A stretch of 64,000 nt of DNA from Elusimicrobiota bacterium (GCA_026388115.1 JAPLKK010000017.1:15667-79666), one strand, 5' to 3'. Positions 3,001 to 55,805 are shown, counted from the stretch's first letter. A program made the numbers and translations. Notes: generated by a model from the letters alone, not told the origin.

Positions 3001-6000
3001 CAACGTCTTCTTCAGCCCCGACGGCCTGAACTGGAGCGCCTCCAACGCCGCGCTCGGCAAGCCCGTCGGGAACCAAGGTTCGGGCGGTCCGCTCCGCGGC
3101 TTTGCGCTATTCAATGGCAAGCTCTACGTCGCGGACAACAACGCGGCCGGCAGGGTGTACGTCAGCGTGGACGGCCAGAACTGGACGACGAGCAACGGCG
3201 GCAACCCGGTCGGCTCGGTCATCAACGCGATGACCGTCTTCAACGGCCGCCTGTTCGCGTCCGACCCCATTACCAGCCGCGTGTACGTGAGCACCGACGG
3301 GAACATCTGGAGCACCGTACAGGGAGGCAACGCCATTGGCGCCGGCGGCATGATGTCGTTGGGGGTGTTCAACGGCAGAATCTACGCCGGTGACGGGGGC
3401 AACCCGGCCAAGGTCTGGGCCTCGATGGATGGGAGTACCTGGTCAGCCATGAACAGCGGAGCGCCTCTGCCGGGCGCGGTCAAGATTGAGTCGCTGGCCG
3501 TGTTCAACAACAAGCTCATCGCCGCGGACAGCAACAATGGAAAGATCTGGGTCAGCGCGGACGGCAACTCGTGGAGCGCCGCCGTGCAGGCCGGCGGCAA
3601 TGGGATCGCGTCGTTGGCCGTCTTCAACGGGAAGCTGTACGCCGGCGACGGGACGGGCCGGGTGTACGTGAGCACCGAGGCGAGCACCTGGCTGACCGTC
3701 AACGGCGGCTTCGCCGTCGGAGCGAGCACGTTCTACGCCCTGGTGCCCTTCAACGGCAGGCTGTACGCCGGCGACGCCGGCGGCAAGGCCTATCAGATCA
3801 CGCCGGTGACCGCGACGCTCACGGGCGCCGACGGCTCGACGGCGCCGCAGACGCTCACGGCTTTGGGCCTCAGCCTCCTCACCTCGACGAGCGCCAGCAC
3901 CTGCGGCGCCGGGACGGTCTGGCCTTGCGGCGCGACGAACCAGGTGCTGTTCACGGCCAGCGACCTCGCGGGTCGGGCGACGAAGCTCGGGCCCTTCGCG
4001 ATCCTCGTGGACACCCAGACCTCGGGCGGACTCATGGTGTCCACGCCGGCCCTGCCCCTCAACGGGGCCTTCATCAACGTCCAGCCGAACTTCACCTGGA
4101 TCGGCCCGAGCACCCCCACCTTGGCCGGCCTTCCCGCCGGCTCGTCCTATTACCTGCAGGTCTCGGTCAACGACCCGGCCTTCGCGCCCGCCAACATCGC
4201 CATCGCGATCACGACGCCCTCGGTGGTGATGAGCACCGTCGCGCCGACCGGCGCGGGCGCCTATATCTCCACCTTCACGCTGGCCAACAACGCGACCTAT
4301 TACTGGCGCGTGGCGACGATCAACGGCGTGGTGGGCACGCCCGGCCCGTGGTCCGCGACCTACAGCCTCGTGACCGACTTCGTGCCTCCGGTGATGGCCG
4401 GCACGTTCAGGACGCTGAACGCCGCCCAAACGACCCTCGGAGAACTGCAGATCAACAGTCTGGGCAGCGGCGTGACCGCTCAGATCAACGTCCAGGATCT
4501 GGCCAGCGGTCTCGCCGTGTCCACGAGCGTCCTGCTCTTCGCCGGAGACGGCCATGAAGGCCCCGACGTGGTCGGCGGCTTCGGCGTCATGTATTCCACC
4601 AACGCCGGCAAGACCTGGATCGACTTCACGCTCGCCGGCTCCTCCGTCGGCTCCACCGCCTTGTGGGCCGTGACGGCCTTGAACGGCAAGCTGTACGCCG
4701 CCGACAATACCGACTTCGTGTGGGTCAGCACCGACGGCGTCAACTGGAGCAAGACGAATTCCGGAAACAGCAACCTGCCCGTGGGCCTGACCAGCAGCGG
4801 CGGTTCGGCCTTCGCGCCGCTGCGGGCTCTGGTGGCGTTCAACGGCCAATTGTTCACCTCCGACATCACCGGTCGGGTCGATGTCAGCGCGGACGGCGAC
4901 AACTGGATGGCCTACGGCTCCCAGGTGGCCCAGAGCGCGATCCGGGCCATGACCGTGTTCAACGGCCGCCTGTACGCCGGCGACTCGACCGCCCCCGGCC
5001 GGGTCTATATGAGCACCGACGGGGTCAGCAGCTGGAAGGCGGCCGGTCCCGCCGTCGCGCCGCTGCAGACGGCGGGCGTGCTCGCCATGGCCGCGTTCAA
5101 CGGACGGCTCTTCGTCGGCGACGCTCAGGGCAAAGTGTACGTCTCGGTGGACGGCAGCACGTTCACGCTCGGCAACGGCGGCAGCCCGCTGAACACCCTC
5201 AACTCGCCGATCTTCAGCTTCGCCGCCTACAACAACAAGTTCTACGCCGGCGACGGCCTCGGCAAGATCTACGTCAGCAGCGACAGCGGCTCCTCGTGGA
5301 ACGGGACCAACGGCAACGGCGCGACAGGCCTTCCCGTTTCCAGCGGCGCGGCGATCCAGGCCATGATCGCGTTCGACGGCAAGCTGTACGCGGGAGACGC
5401 GGGCGGTCGCGTCTACGTCAGCACCGAAGGCAGCCAATGGCTGGTCGCGAACAGCAGCTTCCCGGTGGGCGTCAGCATCGGCGGCTTCGCCCCGCTGAAC
5501 GGAACGCTTTACGCCGTGGACAATCTCAGCAACTCGGTGTACCGGCTGTCGCCGGTCGCGCCGACGCTGACGGGGACGGACGGCACCACCGGCGCGCAGA
5601 CCCTGAGCGGCACCAGTCTCAACCTGGTGAACTCGCTCGCCTTCACCTACTGCCTGGGCGCCATGCCTTGCAACGCGGTCGACCAGGTGATCTTCACCGC
5701 CACCGACCGCGCCGGCAACGTGTTGAGGGTCGGTCCTTACGCGGTGCAGGTGGACGCGACGATGCCTCTGGCGACCCCCGCGCCGAGCTTCCCGGCCAAC
5801 GGCGCCTATGCGAACGTCCAGCCGAACTTCAACTGGTTCGGTCCGAGCACCGGGGTCATCGCGGGCCTGCCGGCCGGGAGCTCGTACTATCTGCAGGTGT
5901 CCAACGACCCGGCCTTCCAGGCATCGAATCTCGTGGTGAGCGTCTCGACGCCGGCGGTGGTCCTCAGCACCAACCTCCCGACCGGGGCCGGCGCCTATCT

Positions 6001-8968
6001 GTCGACCTACACGTTCACCGACAGCACCACGTACTACTGGCGCGTGGCCATGGTGAACGGCGCCTTCGGCTCCTACAGCCCCTGGTCCTCCACCTTCAGC
6101 TTCGTCACCGACTTGGCCCCGGCCTTGCAGGCATCGATGTTCACGAGCATCGTCAACGGCCAGAGCCAGCCGGAGAGCCAGCTGACGGCCGTGATCTCGG
6201 GGGCGACCGCGCAGCTCACGATCCAGGACCCGGTCAGCGGCCTCGCCATCTCCACGAGCGCCTTCGCGAGCGCAGGCGACGGCCGTTCGGCGCAGGGCGT
6301 CACCGCCGGCTTCGGCGTCATCTATTCCACCAACGGGGGTCAGAATTGGATCGACTTCTCGACCTTCGTGGTGGTGAACGCCGGCCAGCCGATCGTCGGG
6401 GCGCAGAGCCTGCGCACGTTGGCCGTCTTCGGGAACAAGCTGTACGCGGCCGACGGATCCAGCGGCAAGGTATGGCGGAGCCCCGACGGCTTCAATTGGA
6501 GCGCCGCCAACGGCAACAACCCGGTGGGCGCCGCCTTGCGCTCTTTCGCGCTCTTCAACGGCAGGATCTTCGCGGGCGACAACAACGGCAAGGTCTACGT
6601 CAGCACCACGGGCGACACTTGGAGCGCGTCCAACGCGAACGCCGCCGTCGGCGCCTCCATCGGGCCGCTCGGGGTGTTCAACGGCCGGTTGTACGCCGGC
6701 GACGTGTCGAACGGCCGCGTCTATATCAGCACCTCGGGCGACACCTGGAGCGCGACGCTGGGTGGGACAGCGGTCGCCGCGGCGCCGAGCAACGGCATCT
6801 GGTCCTTGGGCTCCTTCAACGGCCGGCTGTACGCCGGCGAGGGCGGGGGCAGCGCCAAGATCTACTACACCGCCGACGGCAGCACTTGGTTCCCGAGCAA
6901 CAACAACGCGGTGGTCGGCTCCTCCATCACCGCCTTGATCGCCCACTCCGGCCGGATGTACGCGGCCGACGGCAATTGGGGCAAGATCTACATGACCACG
7001 GACGGCAACGCCTGGGTTCCGGCCAACGGCGGCGTGACGCTGACGGTCTCGAGCCCGTCGGTGCAGAGCCTGGCCTCTTTCGACGGCAAGCTGTACGCCT
7101 CGGATCCCTCGGGGCGCGTCTACGTGAGCACCGAGGGCAGCACGTTCCTCGCGATCAACAGCAGCGCGCCGATCTCCGCCAGCAGCAATACGGCCCTGGC
7201 GGCCTTCAACGGCAAGCTGTACCTCTCCGGCGCGGACAACCGGGTGTACCAGATCACGCCGGTGACGGCCACGTGGCTGGGCGGAGGGGACGGCACGACC
7301 CTCGCCCAGACCTTGCTGGGCAGGAGCCTCATGCTCGTGACCTCGAGCAACCCCACCGTCTGCGGCGGGAGCTGGCCTTGCGGCGCGTCGAACCAGGTGA
7401 TCTTCACGGTCGCCAATCTGGCCGGCAGCGTCGCGAGGTTCGGCCCGTTCACGGTCCTGGTGGACACGCTGACCGCCGTCGCCATCTCGACGCCCTCGTT
7501 GCCCGCCAACGGCGGGTACGTGAGCCTGCAGCCCAACAACTTCACCTGGATCGGCCCGAGCACCGGGATCGTCTCCGGCCTGCTCGGCGGCTCGGCCTTC
7601 TCCATGCAGGTCTCGGCGAACGACCCGGCCTTCGCGCCCGGCAACGTCGTGATCAGCATCTCGACGCCGGCCGTCGTCGTGAGCACGACCTTGCCGACGA
7701 CCTCCGGGGCGTATCTCTCGACGTTCACCTTGACGGTCAACACGACCTACTACTGGCGCGTGACGACGACGAACGGGCTGTTCGGCGCCTCCGGTCCGTG
7801 GTCGCAGATCTACAGCTTCGTCGCGGCCTCGACGCCGCCCGCGCTGGCCGGGGCCTTCGTCACCGTGACCTCGAGCGGCGGGCTCCTGCCCGAGGGCGCG
7901 GTCAACGGCCTGGCCATCGGCACCACCGACCAGATCGCGAGCCTGGGCACCGGGGTGACCGCGCAGATCGTCCTGCAAGCCGGCAGCGCGGGCCTCGCCG
8001 TCTCCACCTCCGCGCTCGCCTTCTCGGGCGACGGGCACGACAGCCCGGCCGTCACCGGGGCCTGGGGCGTGACCTACTCGTCGAACGCCGGCCAGAGGTG
8101 GGTGGACTACTCGAAAGCAGCGGTCGTACAACAGAACTTCGGCATCGCGTTCTCCGCGATGGCCGCGTTCGCCGGCAACCTCTTCGTGGCCGACGCGGGC
8201 AGCGGCAGGGTCTACTACTATAACCACGTCAGCAACGTTTGGGACTGGTGCAACCACGGCAGCCCGATCAACGGCGCCGCCTCCCAGCTGCGCGCCTTCG
8301 TGAACTTCAGCAACCGGCTCTACGTGGGAGACGGCAACGGCGGCGTCTTCTCGCTCTCGGCTGGCGACCCGACTTGCGGGGGCTCCTGGACCCAATCGGT
8401 CAGCACGATCGGCGTATCGGTGCGGGCGATGGCGGCGTTCAACGGCAGGCTGTTCGCCGGCGATGGGGCCACCGGCAGGATCTACGTCAGCACCGACGGC
8501 CTCACCTGGCCCTGGAGCGCGGTCCAGGCCGGCGGCCAGGTCCTGCAGATGAACAACGTGCAGACCCTCGCCGTCTTCAACGGCCGCATCTTCGCCGGCG
8601 ACGCCTGGGGCAAGATCTATTCCTCCGTCGACGGCAGCACCTGGACCACGGCCAACGGCGGCGCGCCCGTGAGCGGCTCGACGATCACCGTCCTCACGGT
8701 CTATAACAACAAGTTCTACGCCGCCGACTCGACCGGGAAGGTGTACTCGAGCTTCAACGGCACCGCGGGGAGCGGCGCCGTGCAGGTGACGACGGGGACG
8801 AACATCGCCGTCCTGTCCTTCGCCGTCCTCAACGGCAAGCTGTACGCCGGGGAAGCGGCGCCGCCATCGCCGTCAGCAGCGTCGTCGCCCTGTCGCCGTA
8901 CAACGGCAAGCTGTACCTCGCCGACGCGAAGAGCATCTACCAGTACGCTCCGGTGCCCGGCACGATGA
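2..8968 (+). CDS. Giant cell-surface repeat protein, 5' portion. The gene start lies upstream of the window and the reading frame is open from base 2. It is interrupted by a frame change at about 8850-8870 and continues in the 8953..37614 ORF.
   Basis: ORF 104..8968 in the track. Frame 2 is open from the first window codon and already reads the repeat pattern (NPNGGFVTVTGSSLTSLTAYNNKYFAGGADGRVYVATDGVTW). Five complete roughly 1.7-kb supermodules are present, each with blades such as A.AVFNGKLYAGD..GRVYVSTDG.TW carrying the Asp-box S-x-D-G-x-T-W. Confidence 0.85.
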   Translation, partial: NPNGGFVTVTGSSLTSLTAYNNKYFAGGADGRVYVATDGVTWSAANGGVAFATTPIQTLAAFDGRLYAGDATGRLYVSTEGSVWMVTESGYPISGSIWSLAPFNGKLFTADNILAGNIYQVTPVAASFSAGAGDGTTLSQTLSATNLNLVNSTNTASCAGFMPCAATNQVIFTASDLAGNVLRAGPFAIQVDATTLLAISTPIFPANGAYVNVQPNFDWIAPSTTTVAGLPPNTIYNFQVAQGDPSFQPISIVINVSTPAVVTSTVVPMAYGAYVSTYALANNATFYWRVQIVNGIYGSQSAWSQTSSFVTAFTPPAQTGAFLSWASTGGFIAEVQVNGLATGVTAQVSVQDPMAGLVVSTNVLAFAGNGHDFAGGTGAFGVIYSTNSGQTWVDASTVTVANGGYAIVASNLRALTVFNNALYVADGNGRVYSSPDGVSWGATNGGATVGAGAIRAMAVFNGRLFAGDNTGRIWANNGVSWSQSNNSQVVGTGIAAMTVFNGNLYAGDGSSPGRLYVSTDGNSWRMVQAGIGPLGTSGIQSLAAFNGRLFVGEQGISAAARIFSSVDGSTWPSNAVASLGAVNTNIGSLVAFNNKLIAGDQGNQKVYVSTDGNLWNAGVMLAPTASNINALTVFNGKLYAGDSLGRLYVSTEASTWLVTNGSFPIAAAGAGIQALVPFNGKLYAADSAGFVYQMTPTSMTLSGADGSTASQVLAANAMNLANSSNTQTCNGVWPCGATNQVLFTVVDRAGNVAKFGPYAVQVDANTGLAVSAPSLPANGAYVTTGTVNFDWTGPSTVTLSGLPAGTSYFLQVSRNDPSFAGNIVVAITTQAVPIVSTTMPTAFGAYYSTYTLANNATYYWRVATINGTYGTVSPFSQTYSFVTDVALPVSSGPFTSMAPGGAVGESQINTLIANVTAQIALSQAVSGLAVSTGAVAFAGDGHNFPGVTSGFGVMYSTNAGQTWIDSSQVTVASGGISLGGYALRAFAVFQGQLYAADANGNVFFSPDGLNWSASNAALGKPVGNQGSGGPLRGFALFNGKLYVADNNAAGRVYVSVDGQNWTTSNGGNPVGSVINAMTVFNGRLFASDPITSRVYVSTDGNIWSTVQGGNAIGAGGMMSLGVFNGRIYAGDGGNPAKVWASMDGSTWSAMNSGAPLPGAVKIESLAVFNNKLIAADSNNGKIWVSADGNSWSAAVQAGGNGIASLAVFNGKLYAGDGTGRVYVSTEASTWLTVNGGFAVGASTFYALVPFNGRLYAGDAGGKAYQITPVTATLTGADGSTAPQTLTALGLSLLTSTSASTCGAGTVWPCGATNQVLFTASDLAGRATKLGPFAILVDTQTSGGLMVSTPALPLNGAFINVQPNFTWIGPSTPTLAGLPAGSSYYLQVSVNDPAFAPANIAIAITTPSVVMSTVAPTGAGAYISTFTLANNATYYWRVATINGVVGTPGPWSATYSLVTDFVPPVMAGTFRTLNAAQTTLGELQINSLGSGVTAQINVQDLASGLAVSTSVLLFAGDGHEGPDVVGGFGVMYSTNAGKTWIDFTLAGSSVGSTALWAVTALNGKLYAADNTDFVWVSTDGVNWSKTNSGNSNLPVGLTSSGGSAFAPLRALVAFNGQLFTSDITGRVDVSADGDNWMAYGSQVAQSAIRAMTVFNGRLYAGDSTAPGRVYMSTDGVSSWKAAGPAVAPLQTAGVLAMAAFNGRLFVGDAQGKVYVSVDGSTFTLGNGGSPLNTLNSPIFSFAAYNNKFYAGDGLGKIYVSSDSGSSWNGTNGNGATGLPVSSGAAIQAMIAFDGKLYAGDAGGRVYVSTEGSQWLVANSSFPVGVSIGGFAPLNGTLYAVDNLSNSVYRLSPVAPTLTGTDGTTGAQTLSGTSLNLVNSLAFTYCLGAMPCNAVDQVIFTATDRAGNVLRVGPYAVQVDATMPLATPAPSFPANGAYANVQPNFNWFGPSTGVIAGLPAGSSYYLQVSNDPAFQASNLVVSVSTPAVVLSTNLPTGAGAYLSTYTFTDSTTYYWRVAMVNGAFGSYSPWSSTFSFVTDLAPALQASMFTSIVNGQSQPESQLTAVISGATAQLTIQDPVSGLAISTSAFASAGDGRSAQGVTAGFGVIYSTNGGQNWIDFSTFVVVNAGQPIVGAQSLRTLAVFGNKLYAADGSSGKVWRSPDGFNWSAANGNNPVGAALRSFALFNGRIFAGDNNGKVYVSTTGDTWSASNANAAVGASIGPLGVFNGRLYAGDVSNGRVYISTSGDTWSATLGGTAVAAAPSNGIWSLGSFNGRLYAGEGGGSAKIYYTADGSTWFPSNNNAVVGSSITALIAHSGRMYAADGNWGKIYMTTDGNAWVPANGGVTLTVSSPSVQSLASFDGKLYASDPSGRVYVSTEGSTFLAINSSAPISASSNTALAAFNGKLYLSGADNRVYQITPVTATWLGGGDGTTLAQTLLGRSLMLVTSSNPTVCGGSWPCGASNQVIFTVANLAGSVARFGPFTVLVDTLTAVAISTPSLPANGGYVSLQPNNFTWIGPSTGIVSGLLGGSAFSMQVSANDPAFAPGNVVISISTPAVVVSTTLPTTSGAYLSTFTLTVNTTYYWRVTTTNGLFGASGPWSQIYSFVAASTPPALAGAFVTVTSSGGLLPEGAVNGLAIGTTDQIASLGTGVTAQIVLQAGSAGLAVSTSALAFSGDGHDSPAVTGAWGVTYSSNAGQRWVDYSKAAVVQQNFGIAFSAMAAFAGNLFVADAGSGRVYYYNHVSNVWDWCNHGSPINGAASQLRAFVNFSNRLYVGDGNGGVFSLSAGDPTCGGSWTQSVSTIGVSVRAMAAFNGRLFAGDGATGRIYVSTDGLTWPWSAVQAGGQVLQMNNVQTLAVFNGRIFAGDAWGKIYSSVDGSTWTTANGGAPVSGSTITVLTVYNNKFYAADSTGKVYSSFNGTAGSGAVQVTTGTNIAVLSFAVLNGKLYAGEAAPPSPSAASSPCRRTTASCTSPTRRASTSTLRCPAR

Positions 8969-46237: not shown

Positions 46238-46936
46238 ATGCCGATCCTGCACCTGCCGGAAGACGACCTCGAAAGCAAGCTCAACTCCAGCGCGCTGTGG
46301 GCCGTGACCTACGGCGACATGATGAGCTATCTGATGATCTTCTTCCTGGTCCTGTTCGCCTTCAACGTCACGAAGAAGGTGGACCAGAAGGAGGTGCAGC
46401 CCGATAAGAAGACCGACGATACGGTCATCAGCATCGTGAACGTGTTCGGCGGTAAGATCGACCTCGAGCGGCAGAAGCGCTTGAAGCAGCGTCAGGCGGA
46501 GCAGGAGATGGCGCAGAAGGCCGAGGCGGAGGCGAAGGCGGGGCCCGCGGGCATGGAGGTCAAGAATCTGGCCGACCGGGTCCAGTTCGTGCTCGACAGC
46601 GCCGTGCTCTTCGACTCGGGCCACGCCGAGCTCAGGAAGGAGGCGGTCCCGACGCTCGAGAAGATCGCCGAGAACCTCAAGGAATCGCCCAACGAGATCG
46701 TGGTGGAGGGGCACACCGACAACGTGCCCATCCACCACGGCAAGTACAGCTCCAACTACGAGCTGTCCATGGCCCGCGCCTACAGCGTCGTAACCTTCTT
46801 GATCAATCACGGCATCGCGCCTCAGCGCCTGTCGGGGGCGGGCTACGGCGAGTACAAACCCGTGGCCGACAATCAGACGGCCGAAGGCAAGGCCAAGAAC
46901 CGCCGCATCGAGATCGCGCTTTTCCGCACCAAGTGA
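46238..46936 (+). CDS. motB: MotB-family stator subunit with an OmpA-like peptidoglycan-binding C-terminal domain.
   Basis: N-terminal LWAVTYGDMMSYLMIFFLVLFAF (compare MotB W.VTYADLMTLLMAFF, with the conserved protonatable Asp). The OmpA-like C-terminus reads VVEGHTDNVPI...YSSNYELSMARAYSVVTFL...NRRIEI. Confidence 0.85.
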   Translation: MPILHLPEDDLESKLNSSALWAVTYGDMMSYLMIFFLVLFAFNVTKKVDQKEVQPDKKTDDTVISIVNVFGGKIDLERQKRLKQRQAEQEMAQKAEAEAKAGPAGMEVKNLADRVQFVLDSAVLFDSGHAELRKEAVPTLEKIAENLKESPNEIVVEGHTDNVPIHHGKYSSNYELSMARAYSVVTFLINHGIAPQRLSGAGYGEYKPVADNQTAEGKAKNRRIEIALFRTK

Positions 46937-48324
46937 AGCCTCTCCGGGTCGCTCGCCGAGTCCGCTTATCACTGCGGGCATTCGAAGCCGCCGCCGCATT
47001 CCAGGCGCTGGCGGGCGGCGCGCGCCAGGCCTTCCTCATCGAGCGCGGCGGCTGGGGCGGCGAGCCGGAGACCGCCTGCCTCGGCTGGGGTCCCGCGGCC
47101 GTCTTCCGCCTCTCGCGCGGCCGCTTGGCGGCTCTCGGCGCGCGGGCGCTCTCCGGACCTCACCCTCTCGCGGCCCTGGGCCGCTCGCTCCAAGCGGTCC
47201 TGGCCGCTCGCGCGGGCCCGGCCTGGGCCGGCGGCGCGGTCGGCTACCTGGCCTACGAGGTCGTCCGCCACGTCGAGCCGGTCCCCGCGCGGCCGCATCT
47301 GGCGGAGGAAGGCCTGCTGATGGTCTTCGACCGCGCGCTGATGCATGACTACCGCACCGGCGTGACGGAGCTGGTCCTGTGGGACCGGGGCGCCGCTGCC
47401 GCGCGGGAGGAAGCCGCCGTCGTCGAGAAGGCGCTTCTTGCCGTTGTTCCCTCTCCCCGCGTTCGGGGAGAGGGTAGGGTGAGGGTGAATTCCGTTAAAC
47501 TCACCAGTAGTCTCGGCCGCTCCGGCTACATGGCCGGGGTGCGGCGGCTCAAAGAGCACATCCGCGCCGGGGATATCTTCCAGGCCGTCCTGTCCGACCA
47601 GTTCCGCGCGAGCGTCCGCCCCGGCGACCTCGCGCTCTATCGCGCGCTGCGGGCCTCCAATCCCTCCCCCTACCATTTCCTCCTGCGCGACGGCGACGAA
47701 AGCTTCGTCGGCGCCTCGCCGGAACGCCTCATCAAGGTGGAGGGGAGGCGCGCGCTCTACAGCCCGATCGCCGGCACGCGCCCGCGCTCGCCGTCGGCGT
47801 CCCGGGACCGGCGGCTCGAGGCCGCGCTCAAGCGCAGCCCCAAGGAGCGCGCCGAGCATCTGATGCTCGTCGATCTCGGCCGCAACGACCTCGGCCGCGT
47901 CTGCCGGCCCGGCACCATCCGCGTGTCCCGCTTCATGGACGTGCGGCGCTTCTCGCGCGTCATGCATCTGGTCAGCGAGCTCGAGGGGCGGCTGGAGCGA
48001 GGAAAGTCCGCTTGGGACGCGCTCGAGGCGGCCTTCCCCGCGGGAACCGTGACGGGCGCTCCGAAGGTGCGCGCCATGCAGCTGCTGCATGAGCTGGAGC
48101 CGGCCGCCCGCGGCTTCTACGCGGGCGCCGTCGTTCAGCTGGATCCTCTCGGCAACCTCGACTCGTGCATCAGCCTGCGCAGCATCCGGCTGACGCCTTC
48201 GGGGGCGGTCCTGCAGGCGGGCGCCGGCATCGTCGCCGATTCGAACCCCGCGCGCGAGTACCGGGAGGTCCTGGACAAGCTCGAGGCCGGCCGCCGCGCG
48301 CTCGCGGCCGCCGCGCTCCTGTGA
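46933..48324 (+). CDS. trpE: Anthranilate synthase component I. Carries an in-frame palindromic-repeat insertion at about 47445-47490.
   Basis: Chorismate-binding core: GDIFQAVLSDQF, SPYHFLL, SPERL, LVDLGRNDLGRV, GTVTGAPKVRAMQLL, GFYAGAV. The ATGA overlap with the motB stop is read directly. Confidence 0.85.
   Translation: MKPLRVARRVRLSLRAFEAAAAFQALAGGARQAFLIERGGWGGEPETACLGWGPAAVFRLSRGRLAALGARALSGPHPLAALGRSLQAVLAARAGPAWAGGAVGYLAYEVVRHVEPVPARPHLAEEGLLMVFDRALMHDYRTGVTELVLWDRGAAAAREEAAVVEKALLAVVPSPRVRGEGRVRVNSVKLTSSLGRSGYMAGVRRLKEHIRAGDIFQAVLSDQFRASVRPGDLALYRALRASNPSPYHFLLRDGDESFVGASPERLIKVEGRRALYSPIAGTRPRSPSASRDRRLEAALKRSPKERAEHLMLVDLGRNDLGRVCRPGTIRVSRFMDVRRFSRVMHLVSELEGRLERGKSAWDALEAAFPAGTVTGAPKVRAMQLLHELEPAARGFYAGAVVQLDPLGNLDSCISLRSIRLTPSGAVLQAGAGIVADSNPAREYREVLDKLEAGRRALAAAALL
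47449..47488 (+). repeat. GC-rich palindromic REP-like element, copy 1: an 11-bp stem ccctctccccg / cggggagaggg with a cgtt loop, followed by tagggtgagggtga. It lies in-frame inside trpE and encodes ...PSPRVRGEGRVRVN...
   Basis: Perfect inverted repeat at 47449-47459 and 47464-47474. It is near-identical to copy 2 at 54270-54310. Confidence 0.7.
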
Positions 48325-48905
48325 AGAACATCCTCCTCATCGACAACTACGATTCCTTCACGTATAACTTGTACCAGGCGCTCCGAGGGCTCGGGGCGCG
48401 GGTGGAGGTGGTGCGCAACGACAAGATCGACGTCGCCGGGATCCGCAAGCGCCGCCCGAGCCATCTCGTGCTCTCGCCCGGGCCCGGCCGCCCCGAGGAC
48501 GCCGGCATCACGCTCGACGCCGTCGGCGCCTTCGCGGGGCGCGTTCCGATCCTGGGCGTCTGTCTGGGCCATCAGGCGATCGGCCTGGCCTTCGGGGGCC
48601 GCGTGGTGCGCGCGCCGCGGCTGATGCACGGAAAGACGAGCCGGATCCGCCACGACGGGCTGGGCGTCTATCGCGGGCTGGCCAACCCGTTCACGGCCAC
48701 CCGCTATCATTCGCTGCTCGTCGAGGAAGCGAGCCTGCCCCGCTGCCTTCAGGCCACCTCAAGGGCCGACGACGGGGAGCTGATGGGGATCCGCCATCGC
48801 TCGCTCGCGGTCGAGGGGGTCCAGTTCCATCCGGAATCGGTGATGACGCCGGAGGGCGTGCGGCTCTTGGATAATTTCCTCGCCTTCTCATGCAAGAATT
48901 CCTGA
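48321..48905 (+). CDS. trpG: Anthranilate synthase component II, a glutamine amidotransferase. GTG start overlaps the trpE stop.
   Basis: KNILLIDNYDSFTYNLYQ...PILGVCLGHQAIG...HSLLV...GVQFHPES is the class-I GATase triad pattern. Confidence 0.85.
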   Translation: MKNILLIDNYDSFTYNLYQALRGLGARVEVVRNDKIDVAGIRKRRPSHLVLSPGPGRPEDAGITLDAVGAFAGRVPILGVCLGHQAIGLAFGGRVVRAPRLMHGKTSRIRHDGLGVYRGLANPFTATRYHSLLVEEASLPRCLQATSRADDGELMGIRHRSLAVEGVQFHPESVMTPEGVRLLDNFLAFSCKNS

Positions 48906-49912
48906 AGCCTTTGCTCGAGGGGAGGGGCCTGGCGCAGGCCGACGCCCGGCGCGCCATGGACACTATCATCGGCGGCTCGGCCACGGCCGCGCAGATCGGC
49001 GCCTTCCTCGCCGCCTTGCGCGTGCGCGGCGAGACCGAGGAAGAGCTTGCCGGCTTCGCCGAGGCGATGCGCTCGCGCGCGCGGGCGGTGACGATCTCCC
49101 GCCGGCCCCTCTTGGATACGTGCGGCACCGGGGGCGACGGCGCCGGCACCTTCAACATCTCGACGGCGGCCGCGCTGGTGGCGGCGGGAGCGGGCGCGGC
49201 GGTGGCCAAGCACGGCAACCGCGGCGTGTCCAGCCGCTGCGGCTCGGCCGACGTGCTCGAGGCCCTGGGCGTGCGCTGCGACGCGCCGGCGGCGCTGGCC
49301 GCCTTGGCGGAGCGGTGCGTTTGCGAGGCCGGCGTCTGCTTCCTCTTCGCCCCTTCCTTCCATCCCGCCATGAAGCACGCGGCCCCGGTCCGCAAGGAGC
49401 TGGGCGTGCGCACCGTATTCAACCTCCTGGGGCCTCTGTCGAACCCCGCCGGGGCGACGAGGCATCTGTTGGGCGTCTATGATCCGAGCCTGGTGCCGGT
49501 CGTCGCCCGGGCGCTCGGGCGCCTCGGCGTCGAGGAGGCGATGGTGGTCGCGGGGACCGACGGCCTCGACGAGCTCTCTCCCTTCGCTCCGACCCGCGTC
49601 GCGCATCTGAAGGGCGGCCGGCTCGAGCAGTACGAGGTGCTGCCCGAGGCGGCGGGGATCAGCCGCCAAACGCCGGGTTCCTGCCGCGGCGGGGACGCGG
49701 CCGAGAACGCGCGCATATTGCGCGGCGTGCTCGAAGGCGTTCCGGGCCCGGCCCGCGAGGCGGTGAGGCTCAATGCCGGCGCGGCGCTGATGGTCGCCGG
49801 CCTCGCCCGCGACCTGAAAGAGGGCGCGCTCCTCGCCGCCGAGGCCATCGACTCGGGCAAGGCGCTCGGCGCGCTGGAAAAGCTGAAGGCGTTGACGAAT
49901 GAGCGTCCTTGA
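48890..49912 (+). CDS. trpD: Anthranilate phosphoribosyltransferase.
   Basis: LDTCGTGGDGAGTFNISTAAALVAAGAGAAVAKHGNRGVSSRCGSADVLEALG. Confidence 0.85.
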   Translation: MQEFLKPLLEGRGLAQADARRAMDTIIGGSATAAQIGAFLAALRVRGETEEELAGFAEAMRSRARAVTISRRPLLDTCGTGGDGAGTFNISTAAALVAAGAGAAVAKHGNRGVSSRCGSADVLEALGVRCDAPAALAALAERCVCEAGVCFLFAPSFHPAMKHAAPVRKELGVRTVFNLLGPLSNPAGATRHLLGVYDPSLVPVVARALGRLGVEEAMVVAGTDGLDELSPFAPTRVAHLKGGRLEQYEVLPEAAGISRQTPGSCRGGDAAENARILRGVLEGVPGPAREAVRLNAGAALMVAGLARDLKEGALLAAEAIDSGKALGALEKLKALTNERP

Positions 49913-50699
49913 CGACATCCTCGCCCGCACGCGCGGACGCGTCGAGCGGCTCAAAGCCGAGCGCCCCGCCGATACCCTGCGCGCCGACGCCCTGTACGCT
50001 CGCGAGCCGCGCGATTTCCGGCGGGCGTTCCTCAAGGGCGGCCCCTGCGTGATCGCCGAGATCAAGTTCTCGTCACCCTCCAAGGGCGCGATCTACCCGG
50101 GCGAGGCCTCGGCGGCCCAAGCGGCGCGGATCGCCTCGGAGTACCTCGCCTCGGGCGCCGTTGCGTTGTCGGTCCTGACCGAGCCGGAGTTCTTCAAGGG
50201 CGATGCGGCGTTCCTGCGCCGCGTCCGCCAAGAACACCCCCGCGCGCCTCTCTTGATGAAGGATTTCGTCGTGGACGTGTATCAGCTCCACCTGGCCCGC
50301 TGGGCGGGCGCCGACGCCGTCCTGCTCATCGCCGCCGCGCTCGGCCGCCGGCTGCCGCTCTTGCTGGAAGGCGCCCAGGCCTTGGGGCTCGCTGCGCTCG
50401 TCGAGGTGCACGATGAAGCCGAGATGGCCGATGCCTGCAAGGCCGGGGCCGCGCTCATCGGGGTCAACAGCCGCGATCTAATGACCCTCAAGACGGACCT
50501 CGGAGTGGCCCGAAGATTGGCGCTCGAGGGAAAATCTGCGGCGGGGTCGCGGGCTGTCCTGATCGCGGAGAGCGGCATCACCTGCCGCGCCCAACTCGAA
50601 GAGTTGGCCGCGCTCGGTTACCGCGGTTTCTTGGTGGGGACCTCGCTGATGGCGACCGGCAGGCCGGGAGAAGCGCTGAAGGAGCTGCTGGCGGGATGA
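49899..50699 (+). CDS. trpC: Indole-3-glycerol-phosphate synthase.
   Basis: ILARTRGRVERLK...FRRAFLKGGPCVIAEIKFSSPSKGAIY...IGVNSRDLMTLKTD. Confidence 0.85.
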   Translation: MSVLDDILARTRGRVERLKAERPADTLRADALYAREPRDFRRAFLKGGPCVIAEIKFSSPSKGAIYPGEASAAQAARIASEYLASGAVALSVLTEPEFFKGDAAFLRRVRQEHPRAPLLMKDFVVDVYQLHLARWAGADAVLLIAAALGRRLPLLLEGAQALGLAALVEVHDEAEMADACKAGAALIGVNSRDLMTLKTDLGVARRLALEGKSAAGSRAVLIAESGITCRAQLEELAALGYRGFLVGTSLMATGRPGEALKELLAG

Positions 50700-51330
50700 G
50701 GATCAAGATCTGCGGCGTGACGACCGCCGGCGACGCCTATATGGCCAGCTCGTTGGGCGCGTGGGCCGTCGGCCTGATCTTCGTCCCCTCGAGCCCCCGC
50801 GCGCTCGACGTCGCCGCGGCCCGCCTCATCCGCAGCGCCATCGGCCCGGACACCCTCGCGATCGGCGTCTTCCAGGACGCCGAGCCCGCTTTCATCCAGC
50901 GCGCGATCTCAGCGTGCCGCCTGGACGCCGTGCAGCTCCACGGGTCCGAGACGCCCGAGGCTTGCGCCTCGGCGGCCGTGCCGGTATATAAGGGGGTGCC
51001 TCTCGCTTCCGCGGCCGACTTGGCTGCCTTGGACCCGTACGCCGGCCGGGTGGCGGGATTCCTGGTCGAGACGGTCCGGCGGCTGCCGGCCGGCCGCGAG
51101 GCCATCGACGAGCGCGAACGGCGCGCCCGCTGGGCGCTGGTCAGGCAGGCCGGGCTCTCCATGGCCGTCATTTTGGCGGGAGAGCTTACGCCGGAGAATG
51201 TCGGCGAGGCGGTCCGGCTGGCCGAGCCGGCGGGCGTAGACGTCTGCGGCGGCGTGGAAGCCTCGCCGGGCCTGAAAGACCCGGGCAAGCTGAAGGCGTT
51301 CTTCGACGCCGTGCGGGCGGTGGAAAGGAC

Positions 51331-51334
<4 letters not shown>
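50696..51334 (+). CDS. trpF: Phosphoribosylanthranilate isomerase.
   Basis: [38 protein letters not shown]...QLHGSE. Overlaps trpC by 4 nt. Confidence 0.8.
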
Positions 51335-52392
<1,058 letters not shown>

Positions 52393-52396
<4 letters not shown>

Positions 52397-53190
52397 CGCT
52401 CGCCGAGGCGCTGGCGCGCGCGCGCCCTTCGAAGCGGTCGGGATTCGTGGCGTTCTTGACCGCCGGGGACCCCGACTTGCGCGCCACGGCCCGCTATGTG
52501 TCCGCCCTGCGCTCGGAAGGGGCGGACATCGTGGAGCTGGGGATCCCGTTCTCCGATCCGGTGGCTGACGGGCCCGTCATCCAGGCCGCCGCAGAGCGCG
52601 CCTTGAAGAAGGGCACGCGGCTCCTGGACGTGCTCGCCGCGCTCAGGCGCCTGCGCGCGGCCGGCGAACGCGTGCCGGTCATCCTCTTCAGCTACCTGAA
52701 CCCCGCGCTGCGGCTCGGGGCCGAGCGCTTCGCCCGCGAGGCCGCCGCCGCGGGAGCGCAGGGAGCCTTGCTCGTCGACCTGCCCGCCGAGAGCGCGGGG
52801 CCTTGGAGGCGGGCGCTCGCGCGCGCGGGCGTGGAGCTCGTGCTGCTCGCCTCCCCGACGACGTCGGATGAGCGCCTGCGCCTCATCGGAGACGGCAGCG
52901 GCTCGATCGTCTATTATGTGTCGCGCGAGGGCGTGACGGGGGCGCGCCGCGGGCTGCCTCCGGGGCTGGCCGAACGCCTGGCGCGCGTGCGCCGGCTCAC
53001 GGGCAAGCCGCTCATCGTGGGCTTCGGCGTCTGCGGCGCCGATCAGGCGCGCCGGCTGGCTCCCTTCGCCGCGGGTGTCGTCGTCGGCTCGGCGCTGGTC
53101 CGGGCGGCGGCGGGGAAGTCCGCCGCGGCGGGCGAGAGGGCGCTGCGGCGGCTGGCGAAGGACATCGTTCGGGGGTTATCGGAATGCTGA
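52393..53190 (+). CDS. trpA: Tryptophan synthase alpha chain.
   Basis: [14 protein letters not shown]...[21 protein letters not shown]...[14 protein letters not shown] overlap with trpB. Confidence 0.85.
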
Positions 53191-54245
53191 TCTTGATGGA
53201 GGCGGGGCACGAGGAGAAGCAGCTCGAAGCGGTGATCGAGAAGGTCCGGTCGCTGGGATTCAAGGCTCACGTCATCCCCGGCGCGCAGAATGTCGCCGTC
53301 GGCGTCACCGGCAACAACGCCGCCATCGACCCGAGGCTCTTCGAGGGCATGCCGGGCGTCGCCGATGCCATCCCCGTCACCAAGCCCTACAAGCTGGCCG
53401 GCCGCGATTTCAAGCGCGGCGAGACCGAGATCCGCGTCGGCGGGGTCGTCTTGGGCGGCTACGATTTCGTCGTGATCGCGGGCCCTTGCGCCGTCGAGTC
53501 CGAGGAGCAGACCCTGCGCATCGCCCGCGCCGTCAAAAAGGCCGGGGCGCATCTCTTGCGCGGAGGGGCCTACAAGCCGCGGACCTCGCCGTACGCTTTC
53601 CAGGGGCTGGGAGAGGAGGGCTTGAAGATCCTTGCCGCGGCGCGGGCCGAGGTGGGCCTGCCGATCGTGACCGAGGTGCTGGATCAGAGGAGCCTCGATG
53701 CCGTGGCCGCGACCGCGGACGTCCTGCAGGTCGGCGCGCGCAACATGCAGAACTTCGCCCTCCTGAAGGACCTCGGCAAGATCCATAAGCCGGTCATGCT
53801 CAAGCGCGGCCTGTCCGCCACGCTGGAGGAGTGGCTGCAGTCCGCCGAGTACATCCTGGCCGAGGGCAACCCCGACGTCTTCCTGTGCGAGCGCGGCGTG
53901 CGCACGTTCGCCGACCACGCCCGCAACACGCTCGACCTGAACGTGGTGCCGGCGATCCAAGAGTTGAGTCACCTGCCGATCTTCGTGGACCCCAGCCATG
54001 CCACCGGCCTGCGCCGCCGCGTCACGCCCATGGCGCGCGCCGCCGCCGCGGCGGGCGCGCACGGCGTCATGGTCGAGGTCCATGATCAGCCGCAGCACGC
54101 GCTCTGCGACGGCCCCCAGGCGCTGTCGCCGGACGAATTCGGCCACCTGATGGACGATCTCGACAAGCTCTGCCGCGCCATCGGCAAGCAGCTGGCCCCG
54201 CAGCCCGCCGCGACCGCCGCCTCCCGCACCAAGAGCCACCGCTAG
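53184..54245 (+). CDS. DAHP synthase of the I-beta (KDOPS-like) type, with an N-terminal ferredoxin-like/ACT-like regulatory domain.
   Basis: The N-terminal roughly 80 aa ([33 protein letters not shown]...) is followed by a DAHPS I-beta core: FVVIAGPCAVES...LLRGGAYKPRTSPYAFQGLGEEGL...VGARNMQNF...KPVMLKRG...DPSHATG. Overlaps the trpA stop by 7 nt. Confidence 0.8.
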   Translation: MLILMEAGHEEKQLEAVIEKVRSLGFKAHVIPGAQNVAVGVTGNNAAIDPRLFEGMPGVADAIPVTKPYKLAGRDFKRGETEIRVGGVVLGGYDFVVIAGPCAVESEEQTLRIARAVKKAGAHLLRGGAYKPRTSPYAFQGLGEEGLKILAAARAEVGLPIVTEVLDQRSLDAVAATADVLQVGARNMQNFALLKDLGKIHKPVMLKRGLSATLEEWLQSAEYILAEGNPDVFLCERGVRTFADHARNTLDLNVVPAIQELSHLPIFVDPSHATGLRRRVTPMARAAAAAGAHGVMVEVHDQPQHALCDGPQALSPDEFGHLMDDLDKLCRAIGKQLAPQPAATAASRTKSHR

Positions 54246-54269
54246 TCACACCGTTCTGCTTGTCGTTCT

Positions 54270-54310
54270 CCCTCTCCCGACGTTCGGGAGAGGGCCGGGG
54301 TGAGGGCAGG
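54270..54310 (+). repeat. GC-rich palindromic REP-like element, copy 2: stem ccctctcccg / cgggagaggg with an acgtt loop, followed by ccggggtgagggcagg. Intergenic, downstream of the DAHP synthase gene.
   Basis: Copy 1 tgttcCCTCTCCCcGcGTTCGGGgAGAGGGtaGGGTGAGGG aligns with copy 2 cgttctCCCTCTCCCGaCGTTCGGGAGAGGGccgGGGTGAGGG. Confidence 0.7.
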
Positions 54311-54352
54311 TTTCCGTTTCTTTTCTTCTCCAAGCTTTTCCTTCGGGCCGTG

Positions 54353-54473
54353 TCGGATATTGGTCCGGCGGAGACGCTCGCCGCGCTTTGGGCGCGGCTC
54401 GCTCGGTTACGGACGGCGCGGCTAGATGTGAGAACGCGCCGTCCTCCACACGCCCCGGCGGACCAATATCCGA
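54353..54473. repeat. MITE-like nested hairpin element: 19-bp terminal inverted repeats (18 of 19 complementary) flank an 83-nt core that contains a second 10-bp inverted repeat.
   Basis: tcggatattggtccggcgg at 54353-54371 pairs with ccggcggaccaatatccga at 54455-54473. The inner pair is ggacggcgcg ... cgcgccgtcc. Confidence 0.6.
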
Positions 54474-54583
54474 CCTGGCCCTCTGCGCCACGGCTACGTT
54501 GACGAAAACAGCTATCCAGACTACCTTCGGCCGCGGTGCGTAGATTAGCCCGGTTATTCTACGCAATTTAAGCGTAATATAAC

Positions 54584-54612
54584 TTGATTTAATCTCCCGT
54601 GTCCCCTACAAT
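54584..54612 (+). promoter_or_regulatory. Sigma70-like promoter for fic: TTGATT at 54584-54589, a 17-nt spacer, and TACAAT at 54607-54612. An AAGAG Shine-Dalgarno sits about 8 nt before the ATG at 54633. A 9-bp inverted repeat attctacgc...gcgtagaat brackets the promoter.
   Basis: Read directly from the sequence. Confidence 0.55.
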
Positions 54613-54632
54613 ATACGCACTAAGAGCGTAGA

Positions 54633-55739
54633 ATGACACAATACATCCACGAACTGAGCGATTGGCCCAATTTCCAATGGAGACAGGAGGTCCTGACCGA
54701 GATCCTAGCGAACGTCCGCCTCAAGCAAGGCCAGCTCATCGGTTCGATGGAAAGCCTAGGCTTCTCCCAGCAGAACGAGGCCGTGCTTAAGGCCTTGACG
54801 CAAGATGTCCTCAAGTCGAGCGAGATCGAGGGGGAGATCCTCAACCCGGATCAGGTGAGGTCGTCCATCGCTCGCCGGTTGGGCATAGACATTGCGGGTC
54901 TCACGCCCGCCGATCGTCAGGTTGAAGGCGTGGTGGAGATGACCCTTGAGGCCACGCAAAATTACTCCGAACCGCTGACGAAGGAGCGACTGTTCGGCTG
55001 GCATAAGGCATTGTTTCCCAGCGCGTCGCCGAGTGTGCAAGTGGGCCGGTGGCGCGACGACGCGAAGGGGCCGATGCAGGTGGTCTCGGGAGCCCTTGGT
55101 CGGGAGCGTGTCCATTACGAAGCGCCCGCAGCCGAGCGCTTGGATCGGGAGATGGAAGCCTTCTTCGAATGGGCGAATCGGTCCGGCGACATCGACCCGC
55201 TTCTTCGGGCGGCTAAGGCGCATCTTTGGTTCGTGAACATCCATCCATTCGACGACGGCAACGGCCGCATCGCGCGCGCCATCGCGGATTGGGCATTAGC
55301 GCGATCCGAGAACAGATTGCGCCGCGCCTACAGCATGTCGGCGCAAATCCAACTCGAACGCAAGGCCTACTATCAGATCCTTGAAAGCACCGGAAAGGGA
55401 GACCTCGACATCACGGACTGGATGTTATGGTTTCTCGGCTGCCTTGATCGGGCCATCGCCGGAGCGCAGGCTTCTCTAGGGTCCGTCTTGGAAAGAGACA
55501 AGTTCTGGAAGACGTACGCTCCGCTCCCGTTGAACGAGAGGCAAAAGCAGATGCTGAACAGGCTGCTCGACGGCAGTTTCAAGGGGAAACTGACCACGAC
55601 CAAATGGGCGAAGCTGACGAAATGCTCTCATGACACGGCGCAGCGCGACATCGTCAATCTCATCGAGCACGGAATCATGGTGAAGGACGCCGGCGGAGGC
55701 CGAAGTACGAGCTATTCCCTGAAGCAGGCGCGGATCTGA
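54633..55739 (+). CDS. fic: Fic-family (Fido) protein with an N-terminal DUF4172-like region. It has the HPFDDGNGRIAR active-site motif and an upstream SSEIEG inhibitory-helix-like motif. GC is lower than its surroundings.
   Basis: HPFDDGNGRIARAIADW matches HPFx[DE]GNGRxxR. SSEIEG matches [ST]xxxE[GN], N-terminal to the core. GC is about 57% against about 70% locally. Confidence 0.8.
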   Translation: MTQYIHELSDWPNFQWRQEVLTEILANVRLKQGQLIGSMESLGFSQQNEAVLKALTQDVLKSSEIEGEILNPDQVRSSIARRLGIDIAGLTPADRQVEGVVEMTLEATQNYSEPLTKERLFGWHKALFPSASPSVQVGRWRDDAKGPMQVVSGALGRERVHYEAPAAERLDREMEAFFEWANRSGDIDPLLRAAKAHLWFVNIHPFDDGNGRIARAIADWALARSENRLRRAYSMSAQIQLERKAYYQILESTGKGDLDITDWMLWFLGCLDRAIAGAQASLGSVLERDKFWKTYAPLPLNERQKQMLNRLLDGSFKGKLTTTKWAKLTKCSHDTAQRDIVNLIEHGIMVKDAGGGRSTSYSLKQARI

Positions 55740-55805
55740 TGGGCCGAAAGCTTCGTGCACTGCCGGATCAAGCGTTTCGTTAGTTTTATAGGATAGCCGT
55801 CAGCG

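Follow-up and report, generated by a model that had tools for sequence, protein, structure and literature searches.

A known three-arm repeat of the BoxC/PIT/TM family lies in frame within trpE and at a rearrangement breakpoint in an Elusimicrobiota genome

A 64,000-nucleotide stretch of DNA from an Elusimicrobiota bacterium (GCA_026388115.1, JAPLKK010000017.1:15667-79666; the whole 64-kb stretch is referred to as the window) carries two copies of a short palindromic element, the first within the coding sequence of trpE, which encodes anthranilate synthase component I, and the second in the intergenic region downstream of the DAHP synthase gene. Judged by their arms, both sequences are copies of a three-arm repeat that has already been described under the names BoxC (Bachellier), PIT for potential intrastrand triplex (Hoyne and Maher 2000) and TMECO (Holder et al. 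2015, PMC4666352), and that is called TM here. We propose, with a probability of roughly 0.8, that this known repeat is selfish dispersed DNA that marks and promotes local rearrangement, and that it is present as a neutral replacement in a loop of TrpE and, downstream of the DAHP synthase gene, at a breakpoint. The family itself is known, and the position of a TM inside a gene is unusual though not unique. The family identity of the element, its location in the TrpE loop, its lineage-restricted presence and the hot-spot behaviour of both sites were established in this analysis.

The repeat unit is approximately 37 nt long and comprises three arms, of which the pyrimidine arm reads CCCTCTCCC, the purine arm complementary to it GGGAGAGGG and the G-rich mirror arm GGGTGAGGG. 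Copy 1, in trpE, is laid out as CCCTCTCCCCG / CGTT / CGGGGAGAGGG / TA / GGGTGAGGG, and copy 2, in the intergenic region, as CCCTCTCCCGA / CGT / TCGGGAGAGGG / CCG / GGGTGAGGG. A reading made from the sequence alone (the sequence-only reading) had noted the same element at both places with a stem of 10-11 bp; this is borne out at the positions given in Table 1, with a stem of 11 bp in each copy, and the length of about 42 bp that it gave is corrected to a 37-nt unit plus a shared 5' flank of about 15 nt. The core arms match the Escherichia coli TMECO sequences exactly (Table 1 of PMC4666352), the K-12 members of which include CCCTCTCCCTGTGGGAGAGGGCCGGGGTGAGGGC, and both copies follow the published pattern, 5'-CCCTCNCCC N3-6 GGGNGAGGG N3 GGGNGAGGG-3', in the class II order. 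When only the 9-nt arms are considered, the loops of copy 1 measure 8 and 2 nt, slightly beyond the published ranges, and the surplus bases lengthen the stem to 11 bp. The pattern CCCTCTCCC-N5-12-GGGAGAGGG matches the window at two places and has no match in 100 dinucleotide-preserving shuffles. As single-stranded DNA, the hairpins of copies 1 and 2 have computed energies of −14.6 kcal/mol (z = −5.2) and −13.2 kcal/mol (z = −2.4), respectively. In addition, the third arm mirrors the purine arm such that 9 of the 9 triads in the window copies are allowed by the purine-motif triad rule (C-G·G, T-A·T, T-A·A). The HPG1/HPG2 motifs, for which a switch between G-quadruplex, hairpin and duplex has been proposed, are the same sequence (Kaplan et al. 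2016, PMC5100583).

The window copies thus resemble the described BoxC/PIT/TMECO repeats in their three identical arms, class II order and hairpin with a third arm, and in their loops of 3-8 and 2-3 nt, including the type-B CCG second loop of copy 2. They differ from these repeats in that copy 1 has TA rather than TTA as its second loop, that a lineage-specific 5' flank of about 15 nt precedes both copies, and that the host is a high-GC organism with Elusimicrobiota TrpE relatives, which lies outside the 262 proteobacterial genomes from which 3610 TM copies have been reported (PMC4666352). A further difference is that the E. coli copies are reported to be always intergenic (PMC4666352), a trait of the E. 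coli copies that is not part of the sequence definition, whereas copy 1 lies inside trpE. The 5' flanks of the two window copies are identical at 12 of 18 positions, whereas 169 TMs of other genomes match at 11 positions at most and at 6.4 on average, and the loop CGTT(C) that is common to both copies is found in only 1 of those 169. This sharing of loop and flank points to a common origin of the two copies within the lineage. The sequence CTCACC on the 3' side of copy 1 is conserved host coding sequence that is also present in a relative without a TM (L123; L numbers denote the loci used for comparison). No further or degenerate TM was found in the 64 kb with patterns allowing one mismatch per arm, with hairpin-only and two-arm patterns, or with a relaxed three-arm search, and neither copy has a partner TM beside it with which it would form a doublet. 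Lone GGGAGAGGG 9-mers occur at 25368 and 42504, both isolated. A search of positions 46900-54700 against Rfam, with E-values up to 10, returned no relevant family; the sole match that overlaps an element was a chance match to mir-320.

Copy 1 is read in frame as PSPRVRGEGRVRV, corresponding to TrpE residues 173-185, and leaves the open reading frame (ORF, 46933-48324) unbroken, as the sequence-only reading had stated. These residues are located between the two Pfam domains of the protein (Anth_synt_I_N, residues 20-139, and Chorismate_bind, residues 197-449). An alignment of 20 TrpE homologues is good apart from the TM-bearing block, its most variable part. In the AlphaFold model of TrpE (mean predicted local distance difference test score, pLDDT, of 86.5 and predicted template modelling score, pTM, of 0.88), residues 175-183 have pLDDT values below 50 and are predicted to form the lowest-scoring coil, between a helix of residues 154-169 and one of residues 195-207. 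The alignment variability and the low pLDDT together support the assignment, also made in the sequence-only reading, of this segment to a variable surface loop. On the sense strand, copy 1 has a single open frame, which is the one used: the second frame encounters TGA in the third arm and the third encounters TAG, which arises from the TA loop.

The span between the conserved MVFD and GDIFQ motifs measures 83 residues in the TrpE of the window, 83 in L002 (97% identical to the window TrpE, TM present), 87 in L001 (93%, a variant TM present), 82 in L123 (77%, no TM) and 77 in L124 (65%, no TM). Because the loop of the closest relative without a TM is only one residue shorter, the TM is not a net insertion; a clean net insertion was rejected on these linker lengths, and no target-site duplication is evident at the trpE site. 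Instead of adding a peptide to TrpE, as had been proposed, the TM has replaced a stretch of similar length in an unconserved interdomain loop. Neither palindrome nor peptide is present in the orthologues at 77% and 65% identity, so that the trpE segment is not ancestral coding sequence. By eye, no convincing remnant of a decayed TM could be recognized in L123 or L124. Taken together, these comparisons indicate that the TM entered trpE in a recent ancestor of the lineage comprising the window, L001 and L002; TrpE relatives with names, at approximately 50-55% identity, are from metagenome-assembled genomes of Elusimicrobiota, and the host is probably an uncultured bacterium of high GC content related to this phylum. 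The peptide is best read as a tolerated passenger, being neither a new feature of TrpE nor needed by it.

Both TM sites of the window are rearrangement hot spots among the three haplotypes compared (the window, L001 and L002, which are 93-97% related), being more rearranged among these close relatives than ordinary DNA. At the trpE site, the TM of L002 is the window copy with one C-to-T change in the stem. L001 carries a different TM variant at this site, CCCTCTCCCGCC-TCC-GGCGGGAGAGGG-CCG-GGGTGAGGG, with a 12-bp stem and a CCG loop; its flanks differ over about 15-20 nt on each side, four extra residues are encoded and the 5' arm is read in another frame, and the ORF is kept. The surrounding 5.6 kb of L001, including trpE, is approximately 94% identical to the window, and 94-95% identity is found across the flanking kilobases. 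At the second site, copy 2 sits exactly at the breakpoint, and different foreign DNA is inserted there in different strains. In the window, a low-GC island of 52-64% GC between flanks of 70-77% GC contains a Fic/DUF4172/HTH gene at 54633-55739. In L002, a TM with a different loop lies 4 nt after the DAHP synthase stop codon and homology to the window ceases 5 nt past this TM, next to which is found a degraded, frameshifted remnant of an IS91-family (Y2_Tnp) transposase (L002 7778-8408). L001 has neither TM nor island, and aroA directly follows the DAHP synthase stop. The behaviour of both sites matches the strong strain-to-strain variability that has been published for TM loci, together with TM-associated genomic instability (Holder et al., PMC4666352), and is thus a further likeness to the described family. 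The coordinates of both copies and of the features around them are collected in Table 1; the genes downstream of trpE are, in order, trpG, trpD, trpC, trpF, trpB, trpA and the DAHP synthase gene. A possible 3-nt TAG repeat is present at the ends of the 1.5-kb island.

Table 1 Features at and around the two TM copies in the window
Feature	Position	Strand	Remarks
trpE, anthranilate synthase component I, 463 aa	46933..48324	+	Chorismate_bind (E=1e-87), Anth_synt_I_N
5' flank of copy 1, CTTCTTGCCGTTGTT	47434..47448	+	common to copy 2; lineage-specific extension of the repeat unit
TM/BoxC copy 1	47449..47485	+	in frame in trpE; three-arm pattern, core as in E. coli TMECO (Table 1 of PMC4666352)
Copy 1, pyrimidine arm/stem	47449-47459		
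Copy 1, first loop	47460-47463		
Copy 1, purine arm	47464-47474		
Copy 1, second loop	47475-47476		
Copy 1, third G-rich arm	47477-47485		
DAHP synthase gene	53184..54245	+	closes the trpEGDCFBA-aroF block; 24 nt from its stop codon to copy 2
Low-GC island, 1537 bp	54246..55782	+	begins with copy 2; inserted at the DAHP synthase stop
5' flank of copy 2, (T)CTGCTTGTCGTTCT	54255..54269	+	common to copy 1
TM/BoxC copy 2	54270..54306	+	intergenic; type-B CCG second loop
Copy 2, stem	54270-54280 / 54284-54294		
Copy 2, third arm	54298-54306		

Within the same operon, the trpB gene of the window (51329-52396) looks broken: relative to the intact 385-aa trpB of L001 and L002, 92 nt are missing at approximately 51742, which results in a frameshift and in split ORFs at 51331-52371 and 51689-52396. 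The first 415 nt of the gene are 87% identical to the relatives, compared with about 95% elsewhere. Pseudogene formation, recombination or an error in the assembly may account for this state of trpB.

A scan of one genome per species for the exact pattern yielded at least 120 loci; all counts given for these loci are among the matches listed. These loci span the Alpha-, Beta- and Gammaproteobacteria, Myxococcota, Chloroflexota, Planctomycetota, Acidobacteriota, Nitrospirota, Verrucomicrobiota, Cyanobacteria, Rokubacteria and Elusimicrobiota, among others. Because exact matches occur in so many phyla, the TM family is far wider than published, and the suggestion of the sequence-only reading that the element belongs to a dispersed family holds in that many more copies exist in other organisms. 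Outside the unit, conservation among 169 copies is limited to two pyrimidines (YY) on its 5' side and a G on its 3' side. The short TM pairs among the listed loci are predominantly inverted (39 inverted and 2 direct), consistent with the inverted doublets of the described family.

In at least 8 of the 120 listed loci, the TM lies in frame in a conserved protein with Pfam domains on both sides. The hosts are MetG (L004), Mfd with an inverted doublet (L005), an ABC exporter (L007), LigA (L036), PriA (L084), an HrpB-like helicase with three copies (L105), VgrG (L107) and UvrB (L110). As inspection of the arm sequences shows, a stop codon is present in just 1 of the 6 frames of the core arms, which partly explains the tolerance of TMs in genes. 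Among 120 betaproteobacterial MetG orthologues (64-82% identity), the linker is seen in three states: in most it is empty, in several it holds a TM-derived peptide only, and in 7 it holds a full cassette of the kind described below. The TM-only state was confirmed at the DNA level in L207. In L206, a variant three-arm repeat (CCCTTCCCC / GGGGAAGGG / GGGATGGGG) lies in frame in a MetG linker at 2139-2174 and 2226-2261; all three arms have changed together with the triad rule kept, which is a three-arm co-variation. Viewed against these examples, the trpE case is one instance of a general in-frame habit similar to that of the Rickettsia palindromic element (RPE). No description of such a habit for the TM repeat was found in the searchable literature.

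At two of these loci, L004 (1307-1794) and L084 (2407-2839), the in-frame insert is an entire TM–DUF559–TM cassette (PF04480, E = 1e-30 to 1e-37). An independent sample of 80 metagenome DUF559 loci (L126-L205), which were picked by protein similarity alone, shows that the association is solid: a TM lies within 200 nt of the DUF559 match in 47 of the 80 loci and on both sides of it in 20. TM density is approximately 2.5 per kb near DUF559 and 0.11 per kb in the other 247 kb, and the usual layout is a TM(+) upstream and a TM(−) downstream of the gene. TM-flanked DUF559 genes are also found at L121, L039 and L023, and HrpA, MetG and an N6/N4 DNA methylase contain in-frame cassettes (further cassette loci: L129, L131 and L179), as does PriA (L084). 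In E. coli K-12 (L125, NC_000913 1349500-1352500), the DUF559 gene ycjD (1351407-1351760) is located 168 nt from TMECO no. 9, and a partial duplicate of the 3' end of ycjD and a degenerate hairpin lie in between. Most strains of phylogroups A, B1 and C have 19-30 TMs, compared with 1-2 in B2 and 6-15 in D, E and F (supplement of PMC4666352), and a 2026 study (PMC12817139) reports ycjD from phylogroups A, B1 and C and eefRABCD at its locus in the others, B2 among them; these counts fit a role of DUF559, but phylogeny confounds the comparison. Within the PD-(D/E)XK nucleases, DUF559 falls in the Vsr clade, as does a homing endonuclease (PMC3424549); the closest solved structure to DUF559 is PDB ID 3hrl. 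An independent study reported a 14-fold enrichment of DUF559 proteins among genes with inverted repeats at their boundaries (PMC9881135), and a gene flanked by inverted repeats is the layout that led to the discovery of RAYT for REPINs (PMC3116915). No paper that describes a link between TM and DUF559 was found in the searchable literature.

From this arrangement, we infer that DUF559 proteins may mobilise TMs. In the fuller form of this proposal, for which we see even odds, TM repeats would be non-autonomous partners of the DUF559 (Vsr-like PD-(D/E)XK) endonuclease. The autonomous element would be TM(+)–DUF559–TM(−), of approximately 450-500 bp; doublets and solo TMs, including both window copies, would be its derivatives or footprints; and the cassette and solo TMs would invade genes in frame at permissive linkers across phyla. 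The reverse, in which DUF559 cassettes home into TM doublets, is possible.

The proposed course of events at the window sites is as follows. As single-stranded DNA, the unit would fold into a hairpin on which the third arm is predicted to dock as a class II purine-motif triplex; alternatively, the four G-runs may fold into a G-quadruplex. In a recent ancestor of the lineage, a TM would have been swapped in for an equally long stretch of the disordered interdomain loop of TrpE, and it is proposed to persist there because the frame used is free of stop codons and any sequence is tolerated in the loop. Copies would then be made, exchanged or lost via recombination or gene conversion between copies, perhaps with a trans-acting DUF559 (Vsr-like) endonuclease as the catalyst, the gene of which would be flanked by TMs and lie at another place in the genome. 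A TM oligonucleotide has been found to form a triplex in vitro (CD, NMR), and published work has described no tie of TM to known mobile elements (both PMC4666352).

Several points weigh against the reading of the repeat as selfish DNA that marks and promotes rearrangement. Dispersal of the TM across the source genome is deduced from the behaviour of the family, as only two copies can be counted in the 64 kb. A stable TM triplex could not be demonstrated in vivo in published work (PMC4666352), and no DUF559 gene is detected in the window (tblastn, E ≤ 1e-3), which leaves the trans-acting enzyme putative for this organism. Furthermore, because of the frameshifting deletion in trpB, selection on the trp operon of the window may be relaxed; in L001 and L002, trpB is intact and a TM is present in trpE nonetheless. 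Finally, the causal direction may run either way: the TM may cause rearrangement or may accumulate where rearrangement is tolerated.

An explanation in which the TM is a passive target or attachment site, beside or into which islands, insertion sequence (IS) elements and DUF559 cassettes insert, is unlikely but is the strongest of the alternatives. The Fic island of the window and the IS91 remnant of L002 abut the same TM position, and DUF559 genes lie between inverted TMs oriented as in empty TM doublets, both of which would be expected of such a site. A passive target leaves unexplained how TMs arrive at new sites, such as the trpE loop and the MetG linker, and why the window copies have a lineage-specific flank and loop in common. 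It is also compatible with the selfish-repeat explanation rather than exclusive of it.

That the copies serve the host as a cis-acting signal, either as a terminator or mRNA-stabilising hairpin after the trp-aroF block or as a hairpin/G-quadruplex switch on trpE expression, is improbable. The short distance of copy 2 from the last stop codon of the block, the strong RNA hairpins predicted for the two copies (76- and 85-nt stretches at −37.5 and −33.1 kcal/mol) and the fit of the four G3 runs to the G-quadruplex motif, for which the switch mentioned above was proposed (PMC5100583), are in its favour. A terminator scan around copy 2 found none, however, since no T-tract is present, and PIT elements lacked promoter and terminator activity in published tests (summarised in PMC4666352). 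The close relative L001 has the same operon with nothing after the DAHP synthase gene, and the unit is found inside many unrelated genes in both orientations. It is very improbable that the trpE segment is ancestral coding sequence that resembles a TM by chance, or an assembly artefact: the linker is about as long as in homologues without a TM, but all three 9-nt arms are exact, the hairpin pattern is absent from the 100 shuffles, peptide and palindrome are both missing from the 77% and 65% relatives, and three independent assemblies each have a TM at this position of trpE.

Comparison with other classes of short repeats clarifies what kind of element this is. The description of the element as REP/MITE-like and colonising stands insofar as it is a dispersed palindrome in coding and non-coding DNA; it is the known BoxC/PIT/TM repeat rather than a new one, and the REP tag and the features of MITEs are missing. 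Like the REP/REPIN-RAYT system, TMs are short GC-rich palindromes that are commonly found as inverted doublets and vary greatly in copy number between related strains, with an associated gene between inverted copies. Assignment to the RAYT-type REPs was rejected as the GTAG/CGTC tag that defines them (PMC3733652) is not present, only the YY and G already described being conserved, and TMs differ further in having a third arm. The gene between the inverted repeats is DUF559 (PF04480, PDB ID 3hrl), a Vsr-like PD-(D/E)XK endonuclease, and not a Y1 (HUH) transposase of the RAYT type, for which the ORFs of the window were only partly scanned. In addition, the TM sequence is near-constant across phyla, whereas REPs are lineage-specific, and the mobilisation of TMs is putative.

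Similar to MITEs, TMs are small, non-autonomous and dispersed, and can form in-frame fusions. They lack separate terminal inverted repeats, a target-site duplication and a parent IS element, and membership of this class was rejected because nothing is conserved beyond the 37-nt unit in the 169 copies and no duplication is present at the trpE site. The closest likeness in behaviour is to RPEs, palindromes that are likewise found in intergenic DNA and, in frame, at structurally permissive positions of unrelated housekeeping genes (PMC10969869). The likeness extends to behaviour only: RPEs are approximately 100-150 bp long, occur in Rickettsia only, have no sequence relationship to the TM and lengthen the protein by a sizeable peptide, whereas the TM is 37 nt long, has a different sequence and host lineage, crosses phyla and causes no net length change in TrpE.

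For the window, these results remove a false lead, as the element is known and the trpE peptide is probably a passenger. The function of BoxC/PIT/TM and its mode of spread have been open for about 25 years, published work pointing to genomic instability rather than to promoter or terminator activity or a tie to mobile elements. Two observations made here bear on this question, namely the RPE-like in-frame passengers across phyla and the inverted flanking of DUF559 genes. If the DUF559 link is causal, it would name a testable enzyme for a very widespread repeat and would explain many DUF559-containing architectures in unrelated proteins.

A separate feature of the window is a giant repetitive coding region at 104-37614, with ORFs at 104-8968 (2954 aa) and 8953-37614 (9553 aa). 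It is made up of approximately 19 modules of about 1.7 kb with inner repeats of about 126-135 nt (FNGKLYAGD...). Weak DUF6242 and Ig-like matches and a C-terminal FlgD_ig / Por_Secre_tail-like domain are found in this region, which probably encodes a giant secreted or surface protein.

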